Translations under genes and position numbers: made by a program
Part shown: positions 1 to 20,000 of the stretch, piece after piece
How positions within the stretch are numbered: position 1 is the stretch's first letter
Layout of the letters: the number at the start of each line of letters is the position of its first letter
NCBI GenBank assembly: GCA_013115125.1
Contig: JABANN010000123.1
Span: 47,645 to 67,644, forward strand
Length of the DNA stretch: 20,000 nt
Source: Perkinsus olseni
Lineage: Eukaryota
Reading direction: 5' to 3'
Notes under the pieces: model-generated
What the model was told of the DNA's origin: nothing
What the model saw: only the letters and a program-made list of their open reading frames with translations
Database searches by the model: none

Positions 1-1250
1 ACCCTATCCGTGAGACTGCGAACTCAAAACCCTTGGGCGCAGCTATGGAAGCGAAAGATGTTGGGAATGAGTTTCCTTGATTACTCGGAGAACAGAGTTC
101 AACCGTGCTACAGAAATTCCTCGGAATCAATCCTGTCGAGCTGAGCGAACGGAACTTGAGTAATACAGCAGGACAAGCACGAGGTGCGCGGAGGAGAGTC
201 CCGTCCTGCCTAGTGCGATGAATAATACTCATTGAATGACAACTAAACGTTCGTAACGTAACGTTCGTTGCTTTGACCAGAGGAACTTAGCCTGACAACT
301 CCATTGTAGTCCTCCCTCTACTTCATTCCATTAGATGGTCTACAGACCGCGAGAAGATAATACACAGGCACGAGACGGCCAATCCTGAATAGACACCGCT
401 TTAGAAGTGGCGCTTTTCTCCGAGCCGCTTGTAGTGGCCCCCTAGTAGGCCCCCCCAGTCATGTGACTTCGAATCACTGCTTTGGAGTTTCACCTGTTTA
501 ACGCGTAAAACAGTTAAACGCGATGTGTTCTTCGCGAAGTACGCGATGTGTTGTATTGCAACAACACTTCGCGTCATAACGCGCGCGTAAACCGCTAACG
601 AAATAACGCGTCATTATGTGTTTACCGCGTTACGCGAAATGTTAAACGTGTTAAACACACACAACGCGAGGATAACTCATTAAATAAGAATAGCTGAGTC
701 ATGAAAACAAGCAGCAGAAGTTCACTTGAGCAGAGCTGGGGATAAGCCTCTCAGGATGGTTTGCGTTCTCAGATATTCTGAATCAGAATTTCCATTGATT
801 TCGATTCCCTCCATCAACAAACTGGTACTAGGCCTGCAGCTTAGTTCCTATCAGCTATATTCCTTCTGATGCTATTAATTGTGATAGCAGTGTGATTTGC
901 CCTTCACGCGTTATTGCAACGCGTTACAGATGACGATATGTTCAACACCTGGACGTTTTTCGCGTTCTGACCTCTAATATCAGCCATTTCGCGATGCGTT
1001 ATGCGTCTTACTCTAGCGTTTTGCATAACATGGGTGGAACTCCTTTGAACGTTGAACCGAGCCCGATCTCTGTCGCCTGGGCGACTCATCCCCGGATCGC
1101 ACTGCGATCATCGCGGCCCTGCCGGTGAAATGTAGAGTTAAACGTGATATACGTACATTACCTTGACCTCTCGCATACAGTAGCTGTGAGGCACTGGCTC
1201 ACCTCACGCGAGAGCCTGGGTCGCTGTTGCTCACGCCAGCCGGGAGAACT

Positions 1251-1291
1251 CGTGAATTTCGAGTGGGACATTGTCCCGCTCGAAATTCACG
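1251..1291. repeat. Inverted repeat, 20-bp arms, 1-nt spacer, 1 mismatch
   Basis: cgtgaatttcgagtgggaca-t-tgtcccgctcgaaattcacg. The right arm equals the reverse complement of the left except one A>G. Confidence 0.95.
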
Positions 1292-1334
1292 TGTGTGAAC
1301 TTTCCCGCTTGTCAAGCGGGAAAGTTCACACACG
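1290..1334. repeat. Perfect inverted repeat, 22-bp arms, 1-nt spacer
   Basis: cgtgtgtgaactttcccgcttg-t-caagcgggaaagttcacacacg, overlapping the end of the previous palindrome by 2 nt. Confidence 0.97.
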
Positions 1335-1348
1335 AAGTTAGACTAATC

Positions 1349-1435
1349 TGATTAATAATTAATCATTGATTCAAATCGGGCCGGTTTGATGAATATTATT
1401 CACTATTACTTAGTAATAATTACTATAATAGTGAA
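1349..1435. repeat. AT-rich chain of overlapping short 1-nt-spacer palindromes
   Basis: tgattaat-a-attaatca (1349-1365), tgaata-t-tattca (1390-1402), tattact-t-agtaata (1404-1418), tagtaat-a-attacta (1411-1425), and the longer-range pair ttcactatta...taatagtgaa (1399-1435). Confidence 0.9.
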
Positions 1436-1461
1436 AATCTTCACAATTACAGTGATAGTGA

Positions 1462-1506
1462 TCAACATCTTCACATTGTCACTCAGTGACAATGTGAAGA
1501 TGTTGA
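1462..1506. repeat. Perfect inverted repeat, 22-bp arms, 1-nt spacer
   Basis: tcaacatcttcacattgtcact-c-agtgacaatgtgaagatgttga. Confidence 0.97.
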
Positions 1507-2298
1507 CAGTCACTTGGCAGTGACAGTCAACGAAACTCTCGTTCGTCTAAATGCAGGACTACTACTGTAAACCTCGCAATGCGAGTCTCGCATGGGCACA
1601 AAACTAACTCAGCACGCTATCGTAGGCTTGGAGAATGTACCAGCTGCAACGTTTGGTCCCAAATTTGTATCGCAAGAATACCAGACACTTGAGATTCAGG
1701 CTCAGGCTGGAGTTGCGGCAAGGTTGCAAGCAGAGCGGTAGTTGTCACTCGAAAAACTTGACGTTTAGAAAGTGCATCGCGTTTTTGACTTCACATCGAG
1801 AGCCGCGTCCACGAACGTCAGTGTTGTCAATGCACACCTACAGGTAAGCCAGCGAGCTACATAGAATGCGGGCAATGGAACAGTGTCAACGGTCGATGAG
1901 AGTTTTCGCTACTACCTCAATAAGTGGGCCTCTAGTGTCTTCTCGTGTAGAAATAGGGATCCCTGGGCTCTGTTCTCTGCGGCAAGTGCACGGGTGAAGG
2001 AATGAAAGGATTATCGACCGACGACGTCCGGGGTCTCCCCGGTGGCAGAACGGGCCGTGGCGACGCTCCTGGTCTCTGACCCACGGTATCCCACAGCACT
2101 GTCGTACTCTCTTCGAGCTGATCCCAGGGGATCGGGTCTTGAGCCTCAGCGTGCTGTGACTGAACCAAGGAGAGCGGGAGGAGTGAGAGCTGCTACCAAT
2201 GAAGTAGCGCAGTGGGTAGCATTTGCGATAGTTTTGAATATCTCTGTCTCTCATACGGGACTACTTACACCTGGATCACCCCGCATCCAGTGCTCTTC

Positions 2299-2337
2299 GC
2301 GGCTGCGGCTGCGGCTGCGGCGCGGACTGCGACTGCG
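2299..2337. repeat. Short (GCGGCT)n microsatellite, degenerating at the 3' end
   Basis: gcggct x3 + gcggc, then gcggact gcgact gcg. Confidence 0.8.
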
Positions 2338-3180
2338 CGACAATCGGCGAACATGCGATCCAGACCTCGGCCGGGAGTTGTCCCAGCTGAGAACGAGGGG
2401 AAAAGGATTTGAGTTATAGTTCAACACTCGTGAGTGAACGACACATGCTATGGGGAAACGCTCGTACAAGATTACGAACTACAGCTCATGACCAACCTCC
2501 TTTCGCTGAGTCGATCGGTCTCTTGCTTCGGCATAAGCGGCAACGGAGCCAACACGCGTTCAGGAGGTCGGATCCCAACCGCTGCTCTGAAGAGCGCAAC
2601 AACGGAAGAGTCTGCCATTGTACGCTGCGCAGCCTGATGAGAAGGACAACTCGGCCAGACCCAAGAAAATCTACTAGCTCACATCTAAAAGACGGTGTAA
2701 GCCGTTATCTACGCAGCCACCATCTTCTTGTACTGCATCGGTGAAGTTCTGGCCAAACACCTTGTACGCCCGTACCGCGTCGGACACCGACGGATCGGCA
2801 GTATCCGTTCCGGCTCTATACACCACGCCGCATTTCCACCGTCCCCCACTTTCCGTCCTGTACTGCTTTTGTGGGGGTGCCATAGCGAGGGCTACTGGCA
2901 GGTCAGGGAGAGGCCTGACGAGAGACCACAAGCAACGTAATGTGAGTAGCCCCGCATGCAACATCGGAGGCGAGTCGTAGCCGTTCATGCTAGTGGCATG
3001 AATCGTACGATTCAATCGTACGAATTTCGTGGCATGATGCCACGGGTGATCAAATTCCGATACTCCGGGATCCAGATGTACGAAGGTGCTCTGGGGACAA
3101 AGATGAAAACTAGATCACGGTCCTCTGGTCGCCAAACTCGCGGCGTTGCATGCCACGTTAATCCTTATAGGAGGAAGCAA

Positions 3181-3323
3181 TTCAACGGAGTCCGTTGAAC
3201 GGACTACAATGAGCTGGTGGACCAGGGAGTCCCTGGTCCACCAGCTCATCGGTGGACGGCATCTAGGACCTACGTAGGACATCTAGGACCATCCACCAGC
3301 TTAGGGTCCCTGGCAGGGACCCT
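3181..3323. repeat. Second cluster of 1-nt-spacer palindromes, including a perfect one with 20-bp arms
   Basis: ttcaacgga-g-tccgttgaa (3181-3199); atgagctggtggaccaggga-g-tccctggtccaccagctcat (3209-3249); agggtccctg-g-cagggaccct (3303-3323). Local direct copies catctaggacc x2 and tccaccagct x2 are also present. Confidence 0.95.
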
Positions 3324-4125
3324 GCGGATGGAGCAGTTGACAGGAACTCACTGAAATATTATATAATCACTGCCAGAGTCTTCCCGGAAAGTGGATCGAA
3401 TTCTGTCCGGACTGCCATTCACCGCAGTAGGCTCGAAATGAAGCCGAGCAAGTCTCTCAATCAGCCGAGCATAGATTTGGAACCTCGAGGGATCCTTAAT
3501 TGGGAACCAGAAGATCGCCTGGTCGTGGTTATCATCGCCTTGAAAAAGCTTAGATACTCAACAAGTACTCGCGGTGCCTCTTACGTGTAGTGGCTGTCCT
3601 CCATACACCGCTGTCGTCCCAAACCAGCTGGGCAGTAGCCATTAGGGCGAGAGCAACTGATACTACACCATTCATGACTCCAAAAACCGTAGAGTAGACT
3701 TCTGAATCAGGAGTCTATCGGGGCCCGATAATCGGGCAGATGAGGCGGTTAGTTACCCACTCGAAGGTCTCAAATTAACGAGTTAAGAGGAACAGCAAAT
3801 AGTCGAGGTATCGTACGGGTCACCCGATACTTTCCGAGATTTCAAGCCTGACTCAGCATTGTATGTTGACCGAAAAGTGGTTATTGTCACCTATCCAGTG
3901 AACGCAAGCCACCGTGCATAGCCATATGTCTCAGTAGTTCCTCACCGTTACAGTTCCAGAGACGCACCGAATCATCTTGGGGCAACATCATGGGTCTTCC
4001 CTCTTTATTTTTCATATCTTCACGCGTGCGACTAGCATTACAAGTATTGCAAGATTCCAAGTTTCGGCAAGTGTTACAACACCGTAAATCGTTCAGCGCA
4101 CGCTCTACTATGTGTGTTGTCATGA

Positions 4126-5812
4126 ATGACCTGCCTCGTCAAAGTGCTTCTCCTCTACTTCGTGGAACATGCATTTTCATGTGGCTATAACCAGCGTATC
4201 TGGGCGATCTTCCCGGGTAAGAGACTGGGGCCGCGTAAACAGTCGCTGAAGGCACTAGTCCAATACCGTTGTCTGTACCTGTCTTCTGGCAGGAAGCGAT
4301 CAAGAGATGCCTGCCGTCATAACATCAGTATTCACGGATACGTTTGAGGTTGTTTGGGAGGAGTCTAGATGGTACGCAAGGTCCTGTGCTCTCACTCGGG
4401 CTCGCCACTACGGTGAGGGACCCATACTGCATGTGTTCGTTACACCCTGACCGTCTATCGCGAGAAAACTCACTCGTGCATCTATTCGACAACCCTGGAG
4501 AACTTGCTATGCAATGGAAACTATACTGCTGGGCTCGGCACACCCAGGTCCTGGAGCGATGTTCATGCGAGAGTGTAGGTATTGTCGGATCGAGGGCAAC
4601 GACAAGTCAGCATGTACAGTAAGGAAGGAGGATGCCAGGGATGAGCTCGGCCCGTGCAAGACAATTAGTGGAGGCCCCAGTTTGGACGATGAAGGCAGCA
4701 GCTCGGATGAGACGGTCCGCTGTAAGCCACCAGTCGATGAGTCTATCGTTCCCCTCCGAGGACGCCCCTGTATCTATACCTTTCATTGCAGCGTCACTTG
4801 ATGGCAATAGCGGACTGCCAACAGCTGTACTGATCTCGATACTCGGTGGTGGGCTCGTCCTGTTCTTTGTAAGTATAGTAACTCATGGTCTGGCCAAGGC
4901 TAGCCATCCTTGTAGGGAGCGGTTTACTTCTGCATGCGGAGTAGCTTGAAGCTGTCCGATTCGCCGAATAACCGAACGATGGGCCGACCAGTCGCCGAGG
5001 CACCGATCGACATCGACGGATTGGGTAGTAAGATAACTAAGCCTTCTGCTGTGCGGACTTCGGGCAAAGTAATGACTACTCTCGGCAAGCCTCGCCATTC
5101 CTCGCTGGTCATCAGGCGGCCGAAGAACCTCTGAGCGTTAGAACAACTCCTAGGTTGCCGCTGCCCGGCGAAGGACCCGCGGTAGTGGTACGTGTCGGTG
5201 TCGGCATTTGGCTCACTCAGTCGTCAGGCTCGTCGGCTTTCGGAAACACGGCGGAGTTCGCTCCCGAGTAAGTGTACTGTGGCGTTGGCTGAGTCTAGCT
5301 GCGGCTGGCCCAGGTGCAGGTCATGCGGTGGAGCAGCAGTATAGGCCTGAGCTTTACGAGAAACGTAGTAGTGCTCCTAAGACGCCTACGTGTACGACGC
5401 ACTGGTGTCTAGGCCGGCGATCCAGCGGCAGCTTGAGTACGATGGAGTACAGGCAACTAAAGGGCATATTAACAGAGTGCGCGGGAATAACAAATCTTCT
5501 TCCCTAGCGCCTTGTGTCCAGGCAAGAGAGGCGATCTAGCATAGATGTGGCCAACTTGAGAGGAGGCAGTTCGGCTAGTCTTGGTGGTAGTCGTCTGCTT
5601 CGGTCAATGCTTCGACCAGTGGCGGTCTTTCAGGTCCTCGAAGGTCGTCGGTGACTTCCGTAGTATCATCGCGACGCGGGTCTTTGGCCTCCAACGCAGC
5701 ATCGCGCCGTCCTTCTCGTGTACATCCTCTAGCCATAGACCGATTCTCGAGCTCACGAAGGGAGTCCCTGCAAGATGAGGGAGCTGCTTCCCGACGGAAC
5801 TCCCTCGGCTGA
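4126..5812 (+). CDS. Uncharacterised single-pass (type I) membrane protein, paralog A (spliced)
   Basis: Hand-spliced exons 4126-4216, 4293-4371, 4579-4721, 4792-4868 and 4916 onward give MTCLVKVLLLYFVEHAFS|CGYNQRIWAIFPGSDQEMPAVITSVFTDTFEVVWEESRWYCRIEGNDKSACTVRK...GLPTAVLISILGGGLVLFFGAVYFCMRSS. The last exon (~5634-5812) reads GPRRSSVTSVVSSRRGSLASNAASRRPSRV...SRRESLQDEGAASRRNSLG*. It is homologous exon by exon to the adjacent gene. Exons between ~5025 and 5500 are not resolved. Confidence 0.75.
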
Positions 5813-5923
5813 GGCTTCATGCCGTTCATGCGTTCTCGTTTATTGGACACTATGCAGTCGTTAATGATGATGTTGAGTTTCGGGAAAGTTGGTAGGGCCG
5901 GATTTCAGTATGTTATCCCCTTC

Positions 5924-7608
5924 ATGCAGAAAGCGTTGGTCAGAGTATTGAGTATAGGACTGGCCATCCCTAGTGTATTGGGATGCCGCTACAACGAACG
6001 CGTGCGGGCTGTATTTCAACGTAGTAGTCACGGGCCGGTGATACAGATATAGATGCAGCGTGAAGGAGCTTCTCTCCGTACTTCTCTGAGCCCTGGGACT
6101 GAGGAGTAAAAATCGATGCTTCAGGGACTGGTCAAGAGATGTCCGCTATTGTTCTCAACGTCTACCAAGACACTCTGGAGGTTGTATGGGAGGAAGCCAG
6201 ATGGTAGTAGTGGTCGGGTGAGGGGGTCGGTACTAGTGCTGTGTCTGATGCGTTGAGGAATCATCTGTGTCGTCGGTAGTGGACAGCGCCGTGTTGGAGT
6301 AATGGTCGTCACTAAGGCCGATTTATTTATCAGGTACTGCAATATTCAGGGTAACGATAAGTCGCACTGCATAGTGAAGAAGACAGAGGCTCGGAACACC
6401 CAGGGAGAGTACTGCCGTCAGCCGTCAGTAGGATCGGGTACCGATGGTGATGGGGATTTCGATGGTGGTGGAGCCGAGCTAGGTGAGAGCTGAGGACTCC
6501 TCAGCGAGGAGTCGTCAAGTAGGAGTTGTTGAATATCTTCAGATCCCTCTGGGGATGGCGGTCTCTCCAGCGTCATCGTTGTAGTCATCACAGCAGCATC
6601 TGTGCTCGTATTCTGCGTAAGGCCAGTACTGTGGCTCGCTTTGGCGACTTTTCTTCTGGCGACTCTCAGGGCTGCATCTATCTCTGCATACGCCGTAGCG
6701 CCGAGTCGCTTGACTTGAGCTCGCCTAAGAATGGGGCAGCCTACAAGCTAGGCCGAGGCTTCACGGAGACCATCTCCCGGATGTTAAAGGAAAACGACGA
6801 AGTATCACAGCACGTTCATTATCGTCGTGGGAGGGGTTTTATTTCTTCCACTACTCCGCGGCGTGGTCCGCTTGATCGCGCGTCGTAAGTTCAGCGCTGT
6901 GGAATGTTAGGTCAAGCCTGTTGTTAAGGACGCTGAGAACCCAGACCTGCCGGAGGTAACGCCAAGAATATCTATCACGCCGTCGCATTTGGATGTGAGA
7001 GCTTCGTCAGCGAAAGAGGATTCAAGGCCGAACGATGCCAGTACTCCCACTCGGGAAGGGTTAGCCGGGTTGATGGATGCCTTCAGGCCGGAAGTCTAGT
7101 GCTGCGATAAGTGGCGAGGAGATGCAGCGGATTCGAGATGCTGCGGCGTAAGGGCAGGAAGCAGGATGGGTGTCCCCTCTGTGAACCGTATTCCTAGGGC
7201 GTTGGCCGGAGCTCAGACGCTGGCTACTGACGAGTCGAGCAATGTTAGCTATCGTAACGGGGGAGCATCGGTTTCAGGTAGGAGAAGTGCATTCGGGGGT
7301 ATTCGATCTCGGAACCTTTCATCCAAATGCTGCGTGCTCCTCCCATTGAACTGATAAGTACTTTCGTAGGTTCTCGCCGAGGCTCTGTAGTACAGTCCCG
7401 ACGAGCATCGCTAGTCCCAGGGGCAGCGCCCTCCAGAAAGCTCTCGGTTGCTTCCGACAACTTCCGCATGCCTGGAGAACCTCACGTGCAGCAGCCGATG
7501 TTCTCATCCTCGCCGCCTTCAAGACGGTCGTCGCTGATTGCCGCCCGGTATGGTGGGGGATCTAGAAGGGCCTCGGCGGCACGCCCTAGTCTTCATCCAC
7601 CTGCTTAG
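5924..7608 (+). CDS. Uncharacterised single-pass (type I) membrane protein, paralog B (spliced)
   Basis: Exons 5924-6020, 6125-6203 (79 nt, same length as A exon 2), 6334-6482, 6543-6616 and 6670 onward give MQKALVRVLSIGLAIPSVLG|CRYNERVRAVFQRTGQEMSAIVLNVYQDTLEVVWEEARWYCNIQGNDKSHCIVKK...GLSSVIVVVITAASVLVFCGCIYLCIRRS. The last exon (~7371-7608) reads GSRRGSVVQSRRASLV...RKLSV...SRRSSL...SRRASAARPSLHPPA*. Intron phases match paralog A. The middle tail exons are uncertain. Confidence 0.75.
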
Positions 7609-7796
7609 CCATGTTATCTTACCGACAGCCATGTTCCAGCAGATGTCTTTGTTACCAGCTTAATGGTTGCGTTCTATTGTCGGCAAAATCCAGGGAAGGG
7701 TGGTGGCCGGTAGACCTCTACACAATGCGCGAAAATCCTATATTTCCATCCGTTCATTCGAGGGTACGTAGGGCTACTTGTAACCTTTCGTAATTT

Positions 7797-13731
<5,935 letters not shown>

Positions 13732-14060
13732 TCTGGTTGGGCAGCTCAATGTGTTATGGACAACTGTGGGGGAGTACAGGCTTGTATGAAAGTTGAAAAC
13801 ACTATTCCACCTACTACAACTAGAAGACGTAAAATGTTACGATGTTGCGTTCCTTGACTTCCATCATCACCGGTTTTGAGAGTTGCGCTGTTGTTATTGG
13901 AGGTGGTCCCGCCGATTGCAGCTGTTATTTCAAAATTTCCTCTGTTTTGTATCCGCCGGAGAGCAGCATGCAACGAAGGCGTGGCGGGTCGAGTCCGGTG
14001 AGCGGCGGACCGTCTAGCGAACTCGGTACCCCGAGCACACGCCCGCGGGCAGTGAGCATC

Positions 14061-14941
14061 ATGTCTGTGCGAGTCCTCGTGATGCTTTTCGTAAGCTCGA
14101 AAGGTCTTTTCTCCTCCCAGTCCTGTGAGTCTGGTTCGACGTTCAGGCCCTGTTCCCGATCGGAGGCATCATTCTTGCCTACTACTCTGCCATCAAGCAT
14201 GGTCAGGTAGCAACGAGCTCCGCTCATGCCGCAGCATAGTTCGCGATTGAGCTCATGCCGAAGTTCAGGTTGACTACCCCTATTTGTACATATCGACTGT
14301 TATCCAATGGGACCCTTCAAGGATTTACGGTGCCTTCGGCATGGCAATGGTGAGGTTGCATCCTTGCTTAATGCCGCTAGTCAGCATGGTTCAGTCCATG
14401 ATCTCAGGCCGCAGTCCTCTTCGGTGTGTTCGCGTACGCTCGACTGGCCTTTGTGGAGTACCGTATCGCCGCTGATGATCGGCGGACGCAGATAGCGCAA
14501 ACCATTACGAAGGCTGCCACTTTTGCTACGATTCTCGGGATGGTTGGAGTGGCGTGCATACCGTTCTATCGCATGCCCGTTACTCATCTTGTCTTCGCCG
14601 TGACCTTCTTTGTTTCGGCTGTTGTTGTTGCGGTTTGTGCGTTGTTCGTCGATTACAAAGTCACTGGAGGATGGACTACGATGATACGGGTCCGAGCTCT
14701 GCTTGTGTGTTGTACGTTACTTTTTTCGGTCATTCTGGGCCTCGTGGTTCTCTTCTGGCCCTTCGTCGGCTCGGTCATGGAAGTGCTAGCGGTTTTCTGT
14801 TGCTTCTTATTTGTCGCGACATACGCAGTCGATATGGGTGACTACGACGTGGTCGTGAACGTCCGGCGCCGGACTGGTGGCGATTGCGCCTTCAGTCCTG
14901 TGGAACTCGACGGTTTCCGCGCTACCTGCGTGAACTCGTAG
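14061..14941 (+). CDS. Frag1/DRAM/Sfk1 (TMEM150-like) multi-pass membrane protein
   Basis: Exons 14061-14090, 14147-14206, 14269-14349 and 14408-14941 splice in frame: MSVRVLVMLFALFPIGGIILAYYSAIKHGQVDYPYLYISTVIQWDPSRIYGAFGMAMAAVLFGVFAYAR...GMVGVACIPFYRMPVTHLVFAVTFF...GSVMEVLAV. It has about six hydrophobic helices and the family's YIS...P motif after TM1, the His at the start of TM4 and the Glu in TM6. Confidence 0.8.
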
Positions 14942-15430
14942 GCCCCATTGGGGATGTTTTCTCTTACGCGTGTACCATATCGCCGAGCGGGGCGTTGTGT
15001 TGAATGGGTGTGGTGCATTTATCCTAAAAGTAAAAAGATCTTCCTTACAATTTATTCAACACGAAAGGAAAACCTTTTCCAAGCTATTCATCGCGTTGGA
15101 GGTATTGCCCGCTGCAGTGATTCGGTCCATGAGGAATGCGGTAGATGCTCGCGACGGTGGCAAGCTCTGGCTAAGTAATGTTTCCGTCGTGCTTCAGAAG
15201 CGAATCCTTGACGAAACTGAACAGTCTCGTCTGACGAGAGATGCACATCGCAAAGGGAGACGAGACGGGTGTTCACAATCGCACTCAAACCGCCATGCGC
15301 ACTCAATCGGCAAGCGGAGTCTCCCCGTTGAGGACCGAGAAGGGCTGAGAATTTGGCACGGAGTTGGCATGTGCGGTGGCCGATCATTGTTCGTCTCCAA
15401 GTCGGGCGCAGGCACTGGTGTGAATGGGTC

Positions 15431-15488
15431 GGCTGGCTGGCCGTTGAACTCAACCGGCCATGGTCTCCAGTTAGTCTTGTTTCTTACT
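15431..15488 (+). promoter_or_regulatory. Conserved upstream element of GNAT copy 1 (GGCTGGCTGG at -58; CAG ending 18 nt before the ATG)
   Basis: The same motifs occur at identical spacing upstream of copy 2 (17653-17710). Any function is inferred. Confidence 0.4.
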
Positions 15489-16649
15489 ATGAAGCGTGTG
15501 ACTTTCGTCCTGTGTGTCTGTCTGGTGTACGTAGCGATAAGTGGAAGAGCAACGCGAGGACTTCCACGCAGCCATTCCAACGGCCCGCCTTTGCAAGAGA
15601 CAGAGCGTAATCGCACTGCTTCTGAGCTCGAGTACAGACGTTGGACACCTGACGATATGATGGTGAAAAGGCCAATGAGTAGAATCAGGAAGGGCCGTAG
15701 ATTTGTTGCAGTTGATCCCCACGCCCCATCCACAAGAGTAAGATTTCTCCCTGCCTACATCCGGGGCAGGTTTAAGGTGCGCTCCTTAGCTTCTGCTCAT
15801 CTTTCAGAATGTCGTGGGTTTTGTGGAGTCGAAGGAAGAACCTCTTCTACCGCAGTGCGTCTGGTCTGCTCTGTAGGGCTACGCTGGATGTGAAGCCTTG
15901 AATGCTCATGCTAAGTGTTGTCGTCAATTCGTTTGAATCCGTTGACGAAAAAGTATAATTGTAGGGGGCGTTGTATAGAGTCGTTGTATAATTCGACGTA
16001 TCATTCTAATCGAATAAATCGGAATAAACTGCGTGAGAATCGGAAAGTGGCTTGCCCGCGGGCCCATGAAAGCTATCCAGGATTACTAGTTAAGCAGCCA
16101 CTCTGACCCTCTGAAAAGAATGGACATTACTCCTTGCTATCAGACCAGAGAAACAACGTCGAACTGCTACTTTAATTTATATATCCTATGTCATGGTACT
16201 GGAGGATTGGCAGAACAGGAAAGTAGGCTCGGCAATGTTTCCGAAGGCCCTTGAGGATGTAAGTGTCAATCACAACCAAGCTCCATCCTATTAGTGTGAG
16301 AATCCGGAAATGCCGCTGTATGAGAGCGCCGATCGATTCGCCAGGGGCGCTCGTTCACTTGTAGATACATTCGCGATGGCCTTCAGCAAGCGGAGTATAC
16401 CTCATTGTGGACGCAACGAACAATCTTGCCGTGAAGCTCTACAAAAAGTTCAACTTCACCGATGTCGGTGGTAAGGATGAACCTCCCCTGCAAAGATGGT
16501 TTGAAGACTCGGTTACCGCGTCTCTTCGGCTTATGACACGTTGTTCTGATGCCCGTCCCATCCAGGCTCTTCTCGTTAGCTTTTTTTTCTGTCTGTCAGA
16601 AAGTGGAGACAAACGTTGCTTCCTGTACAAATACCCCACTTCTTCTTAA
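15489..16649 (+). CDS. GNAT-family acetyltransferase with N-terminal signal peptide, copy 1
   Basis: Exons 15489-15737, 15808-15872, 16144-16258, 16365-16470, 16600-16649. The protein reads MKRVTFVLCVCLVYVAISG...RRFVAVDP...NVVGFVE...IYISYVMVLEDWQNRKVGSAMF (motif A)...GVYLIVDATNNLAVKLYKKFNF (motif B, RimI-like)...YKYPTSS*. Confidence 0.85.
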
Positions 16650-17710
16650 TGGCGTTGATCAGCCATGTTACCAGTTGTTACGATGTCAACTTGCAACATC
16701 TTCCCGCTTTGCTTTGGCTAATGTCAATCCTGGCCATAGCGTTACCTGCCTCTCGGCTTCTCGGTAGAGCTTGGGGCGACCGTACAGTAGAGCACTCTCA
16801 TAAAGAGGATAAGAATACTATCCTACAGTGCATGTAGGAACTCGAGCGACAGTAAACGGCTCTTATACGTCGGTGTGCTTTACCGTCGGCTCGAGCTGCA
16901 GTAGCCGCCACTGTCTCTGGCACTGTGATCGGTCTCGCAGGGTTTAATCCTCATCTGTGGGACAAAGCGCACGAAACGTAGTCCGCTGTCGTGTGTGTGT
17001 GGCGTGAGATAGCACCGACAACTCAAGGGAGGGGCTGCCTGTTTCGGGGACGTGGGAGATCGCTGGGGACTCCATACCGAGCTACGTCTCCCTGAGAAGA
17101 CGCTGAGATAGTTCAGTGAACCTGGGCCGCGTTGTCTATGCAAGACAACTGTTAGAGTCTATCAATTCCGGGTGTTGAACTCGTTAACTCGGCCCATTCA
17201 CGTAATGCGAGATTCCGAAGGGGGAGGCTGTTGAAGGAGACAGCGGGGTTAATTGCCCAAAACCTCGATGATAGACCTGTTTTGTGTGCTAGATTCTCTG
17301 AATCCCCGATGTTCTTGCTATTCGCTTTGCTAAGGGAATCGTGGCGTTGACTCCTAGGCGAAGGATAGACGTAACAGTGCGCTCGTCTCGATGCGCCTTG
17401 CTGGAGGTATGCGCAGTTGAGGGAGACGAGACAGTTTTCCCAGTCAAAATCTCACTCGAGGCCGACATTTCCACTGCGCTCAGCCATCTCTTTCGAGCCG
17501 TTTCACCCGAAGGCCAGATGATCTCAAAATTCGTCAGGAGATCGGATAGCACCGTTGCCAATTATTGCTCCGCTGAGCCAACCTCGTAAGCCCAGCTACT
17601 GGGGAATGAGGGCGCCCGCCCGGTGGCTAGATGGAGTACCTTAGCCCTCGCTGGCTGGCTGGTCGGGGAGCACATCGGCCCATGACTCTCAGTACGCCTT
17701 GTTGCCTCTC

Positions 17711-18721
17711 ATGAATAGTATGTTGTTCGCCTTCTGCCTCTGTTTGGTCCATACAGCGATCAGTAGCACAGGAACCCAAACGTTAATACGGAACCATGCG
17801 GACGGTCCACCCTCAGAGGAGGAAGCGCGACACCGCACTGCTGCTGATCTTGTATACAGACCCTGGAGATCCGGCGATATGATGTACACGACGCCCTTGA
17901 CGAGAGTTAGATGGGGTCGAAGGTTCGTAGCAGTTGATCCGAACGCTCCTGACGAAAGGGTGAGGCTTCCAAGAGTCTTCCCAAGGCTCGGTCGCCTCGC
18001 AAGTGAGAGACGGGACATTCTTCAAGTCCTGCTCATCTCTCAGAATGTCGTGGGATGTGTGGAGGCGAGAGAAGAATCGCTGCCGGCTGAGTGCATCCGG
18101 TCTGCGCTGTAGGACCACCCTCGGTGTGTATCTTCGTCATCCTTGGTCCATCACTCGAGCGAGTCCTATCTATATGGCCTTACTATCGCCGTCCTGCTGT
18201 TCTGGTACTGTATGAACATGACTTCCTGTCAGATCAAGGCGTGCTCGCGTGATGTATATTTCGCATGTCGAGGTTAGGGAAGATTGGCAGAACAGAACGG
18301 TGGGGACGACGATGCTGCGGCAAGCTCTTAAGGATGTAAGTACGAGTCAGAACAACGCTGCCCGGATGCGGCCGCTCGAAAGTGATCAACACTACGTCAG
18401 GGTGGTCGGTCACTCGTAGATACGTTCGACATGGCCAGCAACCATCGGCGTTTACCTCCTTGTAGATGATACCAATGAACCGGCTATGAAGTTATACAGA
18501 AAATTCAACTTCACCTACGTCGGTGGTGAGAAAAAAACTACCCTCCAAAAGGCACTGCTCCTGTGCGATGCTGCTGTTGATTCTGTCGCTGCGTCCTTTC
18601 CAATCACGACTCTCCACGATTCTCGTATCAGTAGCGCTGCAGCTAATGTCTGTAGCACATCATTCAATTGTCAGACGAATGCGGCCTTCCAGTCCTGCTC
18701 TATAAGTATTCTTCTTCTTGA
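17711..18721 (+). CDS. GNAT-family acetyltransferase with N-terminal signal peptide, copy 2
   Basis: Exons 17711-17959, 18044-18108, 18233-18335, 18420-18525, 18675-18721. Exons 1, 2 and 4 (249, 65, 106 nt) match copy 1 in length. The protein reads MNSMLFAFCLCLVHTAISS...RRFVAVDP...NVVGCVE...MYISHVEVREDWQNRTVGTTML...GVYLLVDDTNEPAMKLYRKFNF...YKYSSS*. Confidence 0.85.
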
Positions 18722-19201
18722 TGTCCATCCGGACTCAAGCCAACCATGCTTCCTGTTGCGATGTGTACTTCAATATGGCATACTGCCATATTTTTTGGCG
18801 TTGATTTTTGCAAACGTCAATCGTATTCATCATCAGTTGACATTCACCCTCCCGATCTGCAACGCAAGTCTTGCAGAACGGACGTCGTCCCCAACCAAAG
18901 AGACTGCAGTACATTAACGTGGAGGCCCGCCACTCGCTGGTGCTTCAGAGCCCGAAGAGGGACTGAGTAACACCCATACATCGGCTACCGGCGTGACAGT
19001 CTAGTTTTCGTGTCCTAAGCGTCAAATCCCTGCTGCGGAATGCGATGACCATCGCGGCCTGACACTGAAGGTGAGCGAGTGGCCTGATTCCTCGAGCGGG
19101 AACACGCCCAGGTGAATGTAGTGTGAAACTGCGCCGGCCATTCGTGGAGGAACAGGCTGTTTGAGGATCATACAAAGTCTTCAATCGATCATTGCCGAAG
19201 C

Positions 19202-19852
19202 ATGGCAGCAGAGCAGCTCTTGGCTCAGTCTCTTGTCGAGTCAATCATAGACAAGCTCTGCCGGAGCTGCTACTGGAAAATCGCAGAATCCTATTCCTCG
19301 TTCTCAGGATTCCAGGGTTCCTCTGTGCGTAACTGCCGGCCTCTATAGTGCCACAGGCCGGCCGCTTCCGAGAACACCCTTCTGCTGGGCTACACAATGA
19401 TACCATGACTGCTTGCTGTTGTGACAACTGTCTCCAAGCACTCGGGTCGTACTTATCGGGATTCGAGGACTTTCAGGGGTATCCCAGAGACCTCTCCTGT
19501 ATGATGTTGGATAACTCGACGCGACCGTTCTCGTTCTTCACTTCCCGCTTAGTGTCTCTCGATGCCTCTCGTTCGTCTCGAGTTGCGGCCACGACGAGGT
19601 GACACCAACTCGGAGACGGAAGCACACGGGCGAGCTCTTTTGCATCTTGCACGCAAGCTAGGGCTGCACGCATGCACAAATATCTTCGCCCGATGTTCCC
19701 AGCCTCGAATTAGGTTGCGGTATCAGAGGGAGACCAGGGTGGTCCTGTATTTCTCGCTAGTCTTCATCGGAGCCCTCGTTGTGCTGTGCAGGCCGTATGA
19801 ATGGTTGAGGACTGTATGGAACGGCCGGGTTTGTAGAATCTATACAATGTAG
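19202..19852 (+). CDS. Possible small spliced protein with two CxxC-x10-FxxFQG units and a C-terminal hydrophobic helix
   Basis: CRSCYWKIAESYSSFSGFQG (~19259-19318) and CDNCLQALGSYLSGFEDFQG (~19420-19479) lie in different frames with plausible GT..AG pairs between them. VVLYFSLVFIGALVVLC precedes the TAG at 19852. Start codon and splice sites are uncertain. Confidence 0.3.
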
Positions 19853-20000
19853 ATGACGAGATATCCCTCTGTACTCAGGCTTTATTCATCTACGCAGCGT
19901 CCGCTGCTATTTTATGCATTTCCCGCGCGCACGGTGGTACCAAAATTCAAAGTGCCCCGAGAGAAAAAGCCATTGAAGGGCATCACTTTAAATGTCTACC

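Follow-up and report, generated by a model that had tools for sequence, protein, structure and literature searches.

Off-centre opening of hairpin-sealed ends is the source of the short P-nucleotide inserts found at V(D)J joints, and hAT transposons such as Hermes and TcBuster place their first nick one base into the flanking DNA. In the excerpts by which the cited papers are represented throughout this text, hAT excision starts with a cut in the non-transferred strand and ends with the flank closed as a hairpin (PMC6900584, PMC5499845), while Ac/Ds footprints in S. cerevisiae, Arabidopsis and Candida albicans carry palindromic P-nucleotide inserts, with microhomology at the joint (PMC5873905). 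Here we examine a window of 20,000 nucleotides from Perkinsus olseni, in which the segment 1251-1593 is very probably a stack of at least five footprints of hAT-superfamily transposons that inserted into, and later left, a non-coding gap. The mechanism is textbook, and its outcome is unusually uniform and abundant. Our literature search returned no description of such a scar in Perkinsus or of a dominant +14-bp product, though published footprint lists may contain it.

Palindromes, scars and alleles of the window

The window is the terminal 20 kb of contig C256, in an assembly of 39.9 Mb and 3353 contigs, and its genes are intron-rich, as in the DEAH-box helicase at 9200-13000, which has a Pfam HA2 domain near 12,300 and which, from its motifs and S1-like start, we take to be Prp22-like. 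Two genes at 15194-16494 and 17699-18549 are diverged tandem paralogues that share three blocks of 70-78% identity; the overlapping plus-strand ORF tested gave no Pfam match. The segment 1251-1593 is flanked by a MITE-like repeat at 480-1046 and by the 3' end of a spliced minus-strand gene at 1628-3664, which it adjoins from just outside. CT..AC joints in the contigs of three sequencing runs (X15, X16 and X9) mark this gene, and it comprises at least seven exon pieces (3584-3664, 3351-3537, 2682-2913, 2497-2632, 2269-2386, 1914-2159 and 1628-1835), of which 2269-2386 is Arg-Ser-rich; the five exon frames tested had no Pfam match. The spliced contigs X16 and X9 leave 1000-1581 uncovered, which alone says nothing on expression. 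A second palindrome cluster, at 2999-3737, lies mostly inside the 2914-3350 intron of the same gene.

Every palindrome that an earlier sequence-only reading had listed in the first cluster was recovered in place. Three are long, at 1251-1291 (arm 20, centre T1271, one mismatch at 1264), 1290-1334 (arm 22, centre T1312, perfect) and 1462-1506 (arm 22, centre C1484, perfect), and the shorter ones, at 1349-1365, 1390-1402, 1404-1418, 1411-1425, 1573-1585 and 1579-1593, all have one spacer base. The one-base spacer, which that reading took to be the common geometry, is found in 20 of the 38 palindromes of positions 1-4000 against 0.6 in shuffles (arm of at least 6, spacer 0-10, 30 dinucleotide shuffles as control), with no excess at 4001-20000 (3/34 vs. 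4.4 in shuffles). It also holds genome-wide: a systematic sample of 20 contigs (69,463 bp) yielded 4, 60, 2, 3 and 3 palindromes with arms of at least 7 for spacers of 0, 1, 2, 3 and 4 bases, respectively. A proposed ceiling on arm length near 22 bp, by contrast, is refuted by arms of 23, 24, 24 and 27 in the 500 kb sampled, together with further ones of 25, 27 and 30. The view that the palindromes form no MITE or REP family was borne out, as positions 1040-2000 match only themselves genome-wide at E<=10, in a search whose match counts are lower bounds; with no second copy found, a repeat-family origin of 1251-1593 was rejected.

Most of these palindromes resolve into a single dominant scar layout, T(1-7) + revcomp(T) + T(2-8), in which T is an 8-bp word, the added length is 14 bp and the two overlapping centres lie exactly 7 apart. 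Both centres fit the 8-bp word at 1350-1371, where T = GATTAATT and one later mismatch is present, at 1404-1425, a perfect 22-bp scar with T = TATTACTA, and at 1572-1593, a 22-bp scar with core CTCGCA and a mismatch at its first base. Another 22-bp scar with one mismatch lies at 1095-1116, just outside the range covered by the earlier reading, and the single short palindrome at 1390-1402 (arm 6, one spacer base) is probably a one-sided or older scar. The long-arm scar at 1462-1529, with T = TGTCACTG, has its left centre at C1484, a 22-nt inverted copy and filler at 1507-1516; its right half would consist of an inverted copy at 1517-1524, a centre at A1525 and a right flank ending after 4 bases, and since we infer this right-hand layout, the fit to an 8-bp word is inferred with it. 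The compound double-hairpin scar at 1251-1334 runs from the flank, up to 1270, through centre T1271 and a 20-nt inverted copy to a 2-nt junction (cg, 1290-1291), where this copy meets a second, 22-nt inverted copy that is followed by centre T1312 and the flank from 1313; here the flanks overlap by only 4 bp (ACAA), not 8. The second cluster holds a perfect 22-bp scar in the intron at 3183-3204 (T = CAACGGAC), a long scar of the 8-bp type at 3209-3323 (T = CCAGGGAC; 20-nt left arm, filler, 10-nt right arm, centres 84 apart) and a perfect 22-bp scar at 3716-3737 (T = TATCGGGC). In total, the window contains 7 scar sites at up to 1 mismatch and 9 at up to 2, against 0.1 per 20 kb in shuffles, and by our reconstruction some 131 of the 343 bases of 1251-1593 are scar-derived added sequence.

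The stretch is contained wholly or partly in 19 sequencing runs, four of which (X7, X15, X16 and X9) were compared, all as contigs. The locus of another strain, whose alignment the sequence-only reading had named as a check, is available from X7. This run comes from a different sample, one contig of which departs from the window at 33 of 1,139 bases, and it is without exactly 14 bases at 1355, 3184 and 3718, and one copy of T is left each time, a single GATTAATT in the case of 1350-1371. The gap at 3718 appears in two X7 contigs and that at 3184 in one. A single X7 contig joins 1268 to 1313 (record positions 80/81), with 44 bases absent, and 3222 is likewise joined to 3314, with 91 bases absent (short side 21 letters). 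One X7 allele follows the window as far as 1483, continues with G, which is complementary to C1484, and meets the window again at 1529; X7 may also carry the palindromic allele at the 1462-1506 site, another of its contigs covering 1499. Measured against these alleles, the complemented centres are confirmed at 1271, 1312, 1484, 3229 and 3313. The stretches 1390-1425 and 1572-1593 are common to X7 and the window: an X7 contig spans 1390-1402 gap-free, 1572-1593 is shared without a 14-base gap, and the sharing of 1404-1425 means that this scar predates the split of the two alleles. No element-occupied allele was seen at the scar sites of the window in the 4 runs compared of the 19.

Two earlier statements are amended by these alleles. 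Events of different ages did contribute to 1251-1593, but mismatches do not order them, as two one-mismatch scars (1251-1291 and 1350-1371) are missing from the X7 allele while the perfect 1404-1425 is common to both. Nor are the first two long palindromes unrelated, since their outer arms abut in the X7 allele. X15, from a different sample and study, equals 2980-3380 with 0 differences, including a palindrome with 20-bp arms, and this speaks against the second cluster being an artefact of assembly; that the first cluster is real is supported by six runs, possibly of the source strain, in which all sampled words were found, and by the exact allele differences. Elsewhere in the X7 data, the allele behind 1483 resembles, by eye, an older decayed palindrome centred near 1482 (window 1425-1483), which suggests nested events at one spot. 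At 3182-3200 three X7 contigs differ, two being without 14 bases in total and one consisting of the scar plus a 4-base insert, and the sample thus holds at least three alleles or strains.

The neighboring MITE-like repeat (480-1046) is multi-copy, with imperfect terminal inverted repeats (core TGGAGTTTCACC), and its family (copies L002-L010) shows many subterminal CGCG/AACGC motifs; full-length copies sit between A and T, and no target-site duplication (TSD) is visible at the ends of the aligned copies. It bears scars itself (768-789), and one paralogous copy (L004) has a 14-nt insert of scar form that is absent from the other aligned copies. As a maker of the scars the repeat was rejected, given that it lacks a TSD in the aligned copies and is itself scarred. 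A second dispersed repeat, of about 125 bp at 3864-3988, has more than 10 matches at 75-85% identity, one copy lying upstream of a decayed hAT transposase on contig C1070.

An 8-bp word across the genome

The same layout recurs well beyond the window. In a template test over 500,370 bp, which used only the three 6-bp cores, 8-bp words account for 113 cores, and the centre is the complement of the terminal base of T on the left (last base) in 103 of them, on the right (first base) in 102 and on both sides in 95, compared with 5 left and 5 right centres that repeat the same base instead. Words of 9-12 bp yielded no core in the same 500,370 bp, and for words of 7, 6 and 5 bp both centres fit in only 1/11, 1/16 and 11/171 cases, respectively, with no complement bias. 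The target words lean to T at position 2 and A at position 7 (0.39 each, 95 words). Perfect 22-mers number 19 in the 69-kb systematic sample, 21 in 183 kb of contig C2790 and 3 in 68 kb of contig C256, and 52 were found in 180 kb selected beside repeats; the samples not picked beside repeats thus hold 43 in 320 kb, or, by rough extrapolation, about 5,000 genome-wide. The scar form is present on many contigs, in introns, in repeats and in a transposase frame.

Pairing of centres by the overlap of their flanks gives 158 pairs with an 8-bp overlap, 124 of them spaced 7 and 34 spaced 9-84, and none in two shuffles (loci below 2 kb excluded). Among the 120 centre pairs that lie 9-90 apart, the overlap is 0, 1 or 2 bp in 93, 8 bp in 24, 5 bp in two and 4 bp in one, whereas overlaps of 3, 6 or 7 bp do not occur. 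Palindromes with arms of at least 10 have a T-derived partner nearby in 30 of 50 cases and none within about 60 nt in the other 20; the three long palindromes of the window belong to the latter, and two of the three are tied to 8-bp words only via X7 or a wider span. Of the 34 long-scar junctions, 7 show microhomology of 1-3 nt and 26 contain filler, which is often, as judged by eye, a mosaic of nearby sequence. Long arms are a minority outcome of the same repair as the 22-bp scars. Separately, long palindromes with zero spacer are in excess in the repeat-picked sample (23 with arms of at least 10) and absent from the other samples; this excess (loci L031-L046) possibly reflects a single palindromic tandem tract.

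A hAT element and a proposed excision route

A domain search places the hAT dimerisation domain at 11 sites in the genome. One of them, the 2,953-bp contig C521 (L028), contains an 819-codon open frame with Dimer_Tnp_hAT (PF05699, above cut-off) and DUF4371, in which the motifs DE.D, D, CxxH, RW and ER.FS are found by pattern, the definitions of CxxH and W being taken from the excerpt of PMC5499845. The C521 protein had no match among PDB sequences at E<=1. A search with the terminal motif of C521 gave 11 matches, four of which are contig ends 100% identical to C521 over 73 bp, the pattern expected of a collapsed two-copy repeat. The assignment of these junction contigs to two copies relies solely on their matching 8-mers and not on spanning reads: copy 1 (end of C2937, start of C289) has a perfect 16-bp terminal inverted repeat (TIR), CATGGGCGTAACCAGG, and an 8-bp TSD, ACTGTAGC, on both sides, whereas the TIRs of copy 2 (end of C1438, start of C3003) are 4 and 2 bases short. 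A one-spacer palindrome directly adjoins each of these clipped ends, with inverted copies of 8 and 6 nt and a complemented centre, and both palindromes independently yield T = GGAATGTA. Copy 2 thus has the appearance of an excision in which both flank hairpins were formed and opened before the element was rejoined in place. The C521 element looks intact and is apparently present in at least two copies, and its open frame and identical ends are suggestive only of present-day activity.

A de novo scan of the sampled loci for TIRs with TSDs recovered no element with an 8-bp TSD, and gave 13, 6, 2 and 1 matches at 4, 5, 6 and 7 bp, respectively; a TIR pattern taken from C1070, where the hAT copy is decayed, gave 4 matches, no more than its controls (4). 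That decayed transposase (L027, 4975-7680) has scars of its own, among them a palindrome with 23-bp arms in the coding region at 5517. At locus L040, a 3.5-kb segment (2416-5871) with long perfect terminal inverted repeats is a possible further DNA transposon. With regard to host repair, a Pol theta gene lies on contig C517 (L115, 2154-6458; DEAD, Helicase_C, POLQ_helical and DNA_pol_A domains), one Ku-domain locus was seen and an Artemis/SNM1-type DRMBL domain is also present; a Ku_N search had 0 matches, as did its controls.

The 8-bp geometry, the alleles and the element together support what the sequence-only reading had suggested, namely hairpin opening and repair after hAT-type excision, recurring at one locus, and we propose the following route. 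Insertion would duplicate the 8-bp target word T, as is seen for an element of this genome, and excision would close both flanks into hairpins, each with the complement of the element-adjacent base at its apex, as is established for hAT transposons. Judging from the geometry, both hairpins would then be opened in such a way as to leave 3' tails, because the centres are complemented on both sides and a 5' tail would place the flank base itself at the centre. Such tails would be complementary across the full 8-bp duplication, and their annealing and trimming would produce T(1-7) + revcomp(T) + T(2-8), at a gain of 14 bp. Where annealing was missed, more of the tail would be kept (arms of 9-30 nt) and joined by 1-3-nt microhomology or templated filler, giving rise to the long palindromes; at 1251-1334, where the flanks share only 4 bp, both long tails would have been retained and joined at their tips. 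Pol theta, the Ku-domain protein and the DRMBL protein are host candidates for the repair, and the scars themselves would be mutational debris.

How the 4-bp overlap at 1251-1334 arose, and which enzyme made the cuts, can be read in more than one way. For 1251-1334 we favor two 8-bp events lying 4 bp apart, which seems probable at a locus so dense in events that overlapping insertions are plausible. That another hairpin-forming transposase, one cutting with a 4-bp stagger, made this scar in a single event is unlikely, if by no means negligible: the X7 allele shows one clean 44-base difference without flank loss, both centres complement the ends of a 4-bp word and both arms are long, as expected without 8-bp annealing, but a 4-bp overlap is seen in just 1 of 120 pairs and once when 566 kb of the 39.9 Mb were scanned under relaxed settings, and no element with a 4-bp TSD was identified. 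A more sweeping version, which we regard as doubtful, would have flank hairpins always opened some 10-30 nt from the tip, the resulting 3' tails being united through annealing and not by the classical route of trimming and ligation, so that every excision leaves a +14-bp mark, with 1251-1334 deriving from a second hairpin-forming element of 4-bp stagger whose tails, kept at their full 20 and 22 nt, show how far from the tip the hairpins were actually opened. As for the cutter, the same flank-hairpin route could have been served by a MULE or another element with an 8-bp TSD, alone or beside hAT, given 18 MULE domain matches in the genome, several in long open frames, the flank hairpins and 8-9-bp TSDs made by the MULE Muta1 (PMC5499845, PMC5225508) and the occurrence in Perkinsus marinus of Merlin, with its 8-9-bp TSD (PMC8101967). 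This we consider improbable: words of 9 or 10 bp account for 0 cores vs. 113 for 8 bp, which is not the footprint expected of a MULE, in yeast about 90% of Muta1 excisions from sites flanked by a TSD are precise according to the excerpt of PMC5225508, and hairpin palindromes at the ends of an element were seen only once, among the hAT ends inspected, in an element that encodes a hAT transposase.

Two further readings dispense with a transposase, and both fare poorly against hAT excision. Snap-back (fold-back) synthesis at ordinary breaks or stalled forks, which the sequence-only reading had named as a source of similar products, would find Pol theta at hand and would suit the patchwork filler from nearby sequence in long scars, as well as the 20 of 50 long palindromes without a visible partner; in its generic form, however, it leaves the 8-bp pairing unexplained, predicting neither the exact 8-bp overlap nor the one-base spacer nor complemented centres in 95 of 113 cores. 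As the general origin of the scars it is therefore very improbable and largely refuted by the 8-bp peak, although some unpaired palindromes may stem from it. It is scarcely credible, finally, that the palindromes are functional stems, either small-RNA precursors or cruciforms at a centromere, origin or strand switch, or else fold-back artefacts of library or assembly. Rfam does assign miRNA-like scores to 1461-1507 and 3210-3248, but these fall far under the gathering thresholds (32.7 vs. 100 and 32.5 vs. 56) and are near-equal on both strands, and all 12 of its weak matches lie below gathering, so that none identifies a miRNA precursor. The stems are moreover missing from X7 alleles, the same form is ubiquitous in the genome and GC skew is flat over positions 1-4000, leaving the small-RNA, cruciform, centromere and origin alternatives raised earlier without support; an artefact is opposed by the six possible-source runs with all sampled words and by the exact match of X15 at 2980-3380.

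If hAT excision is indeed their source, each scar would give the position and the 8-bp target of a past insertion, and the genome would hold a countable record of transposon visits. The scars would likewise serve as a natural read-out of hairpin opening in Perkinsus olseni, with 3' tails, a long opening distance and annealing. They vary from strain to strain and contribute visibly to changes in the length of non-coding DNA, and the intact-looking element, together with its apparently aborted excision, offers a concrete candidate enzyme.

Comparison with known systems

Of the systems described, Ac/Ds shares with the P. olseni scars a centre that is the complement of the base beside the element, and its arms reach up to 20 nt in yeast (PMC5873905). 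Published hAT footprints are, however, heterogeneous and carry short inserts, which tells against the hAT reading; in Candida there are 28 types in 128 clones and the longest insert is 3 nt (PMC5873905). In P. olseni the +14-bp product accounts for 124 of the 158 paired scars, arms extend to 27-30 nt and the scars, some 4-29 in every 100 kb, are polymorphisms found in nature. Hermes and TcBuster offer a flank hairpin opened by the host, an 8-bp TSD and a weak nTnnnnAn-like bias (PMC6900584, PMC3499496, PMC5499845), and the Hermes target nTnnnnAn (PMC6900584) resembles the T2/A7 lean of the scar words; the TcBuster footprints reported from human cells, as excerpted, are inserts of a few bases or deletions of up to 50 bp.

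The remaining two systems resemble the scars in part. V(D)J coding joints share the flank hairpin (made by RAG; PMC6900584), its off-centre opening and the inverted copy of the flank at the joint, but RAG cuts at the boundary of signal and flank, no TSD is available to anneal and the inserts are short. The MULE Muta1 also forms flank hairpins and has an 8-9-bp TSD (PMC5499845, PMC5225508), yet its excision in the excerpted accounts is mostly precise with the TSD, and the 9-bp class to be expected of it is absent from the P. olseni scars. Taken together, most scars show the features of a hAT excision footprint, and they stand apart from the hAT footprints published in these excerpts in that a single +14 product predominates and is abundant in nature.
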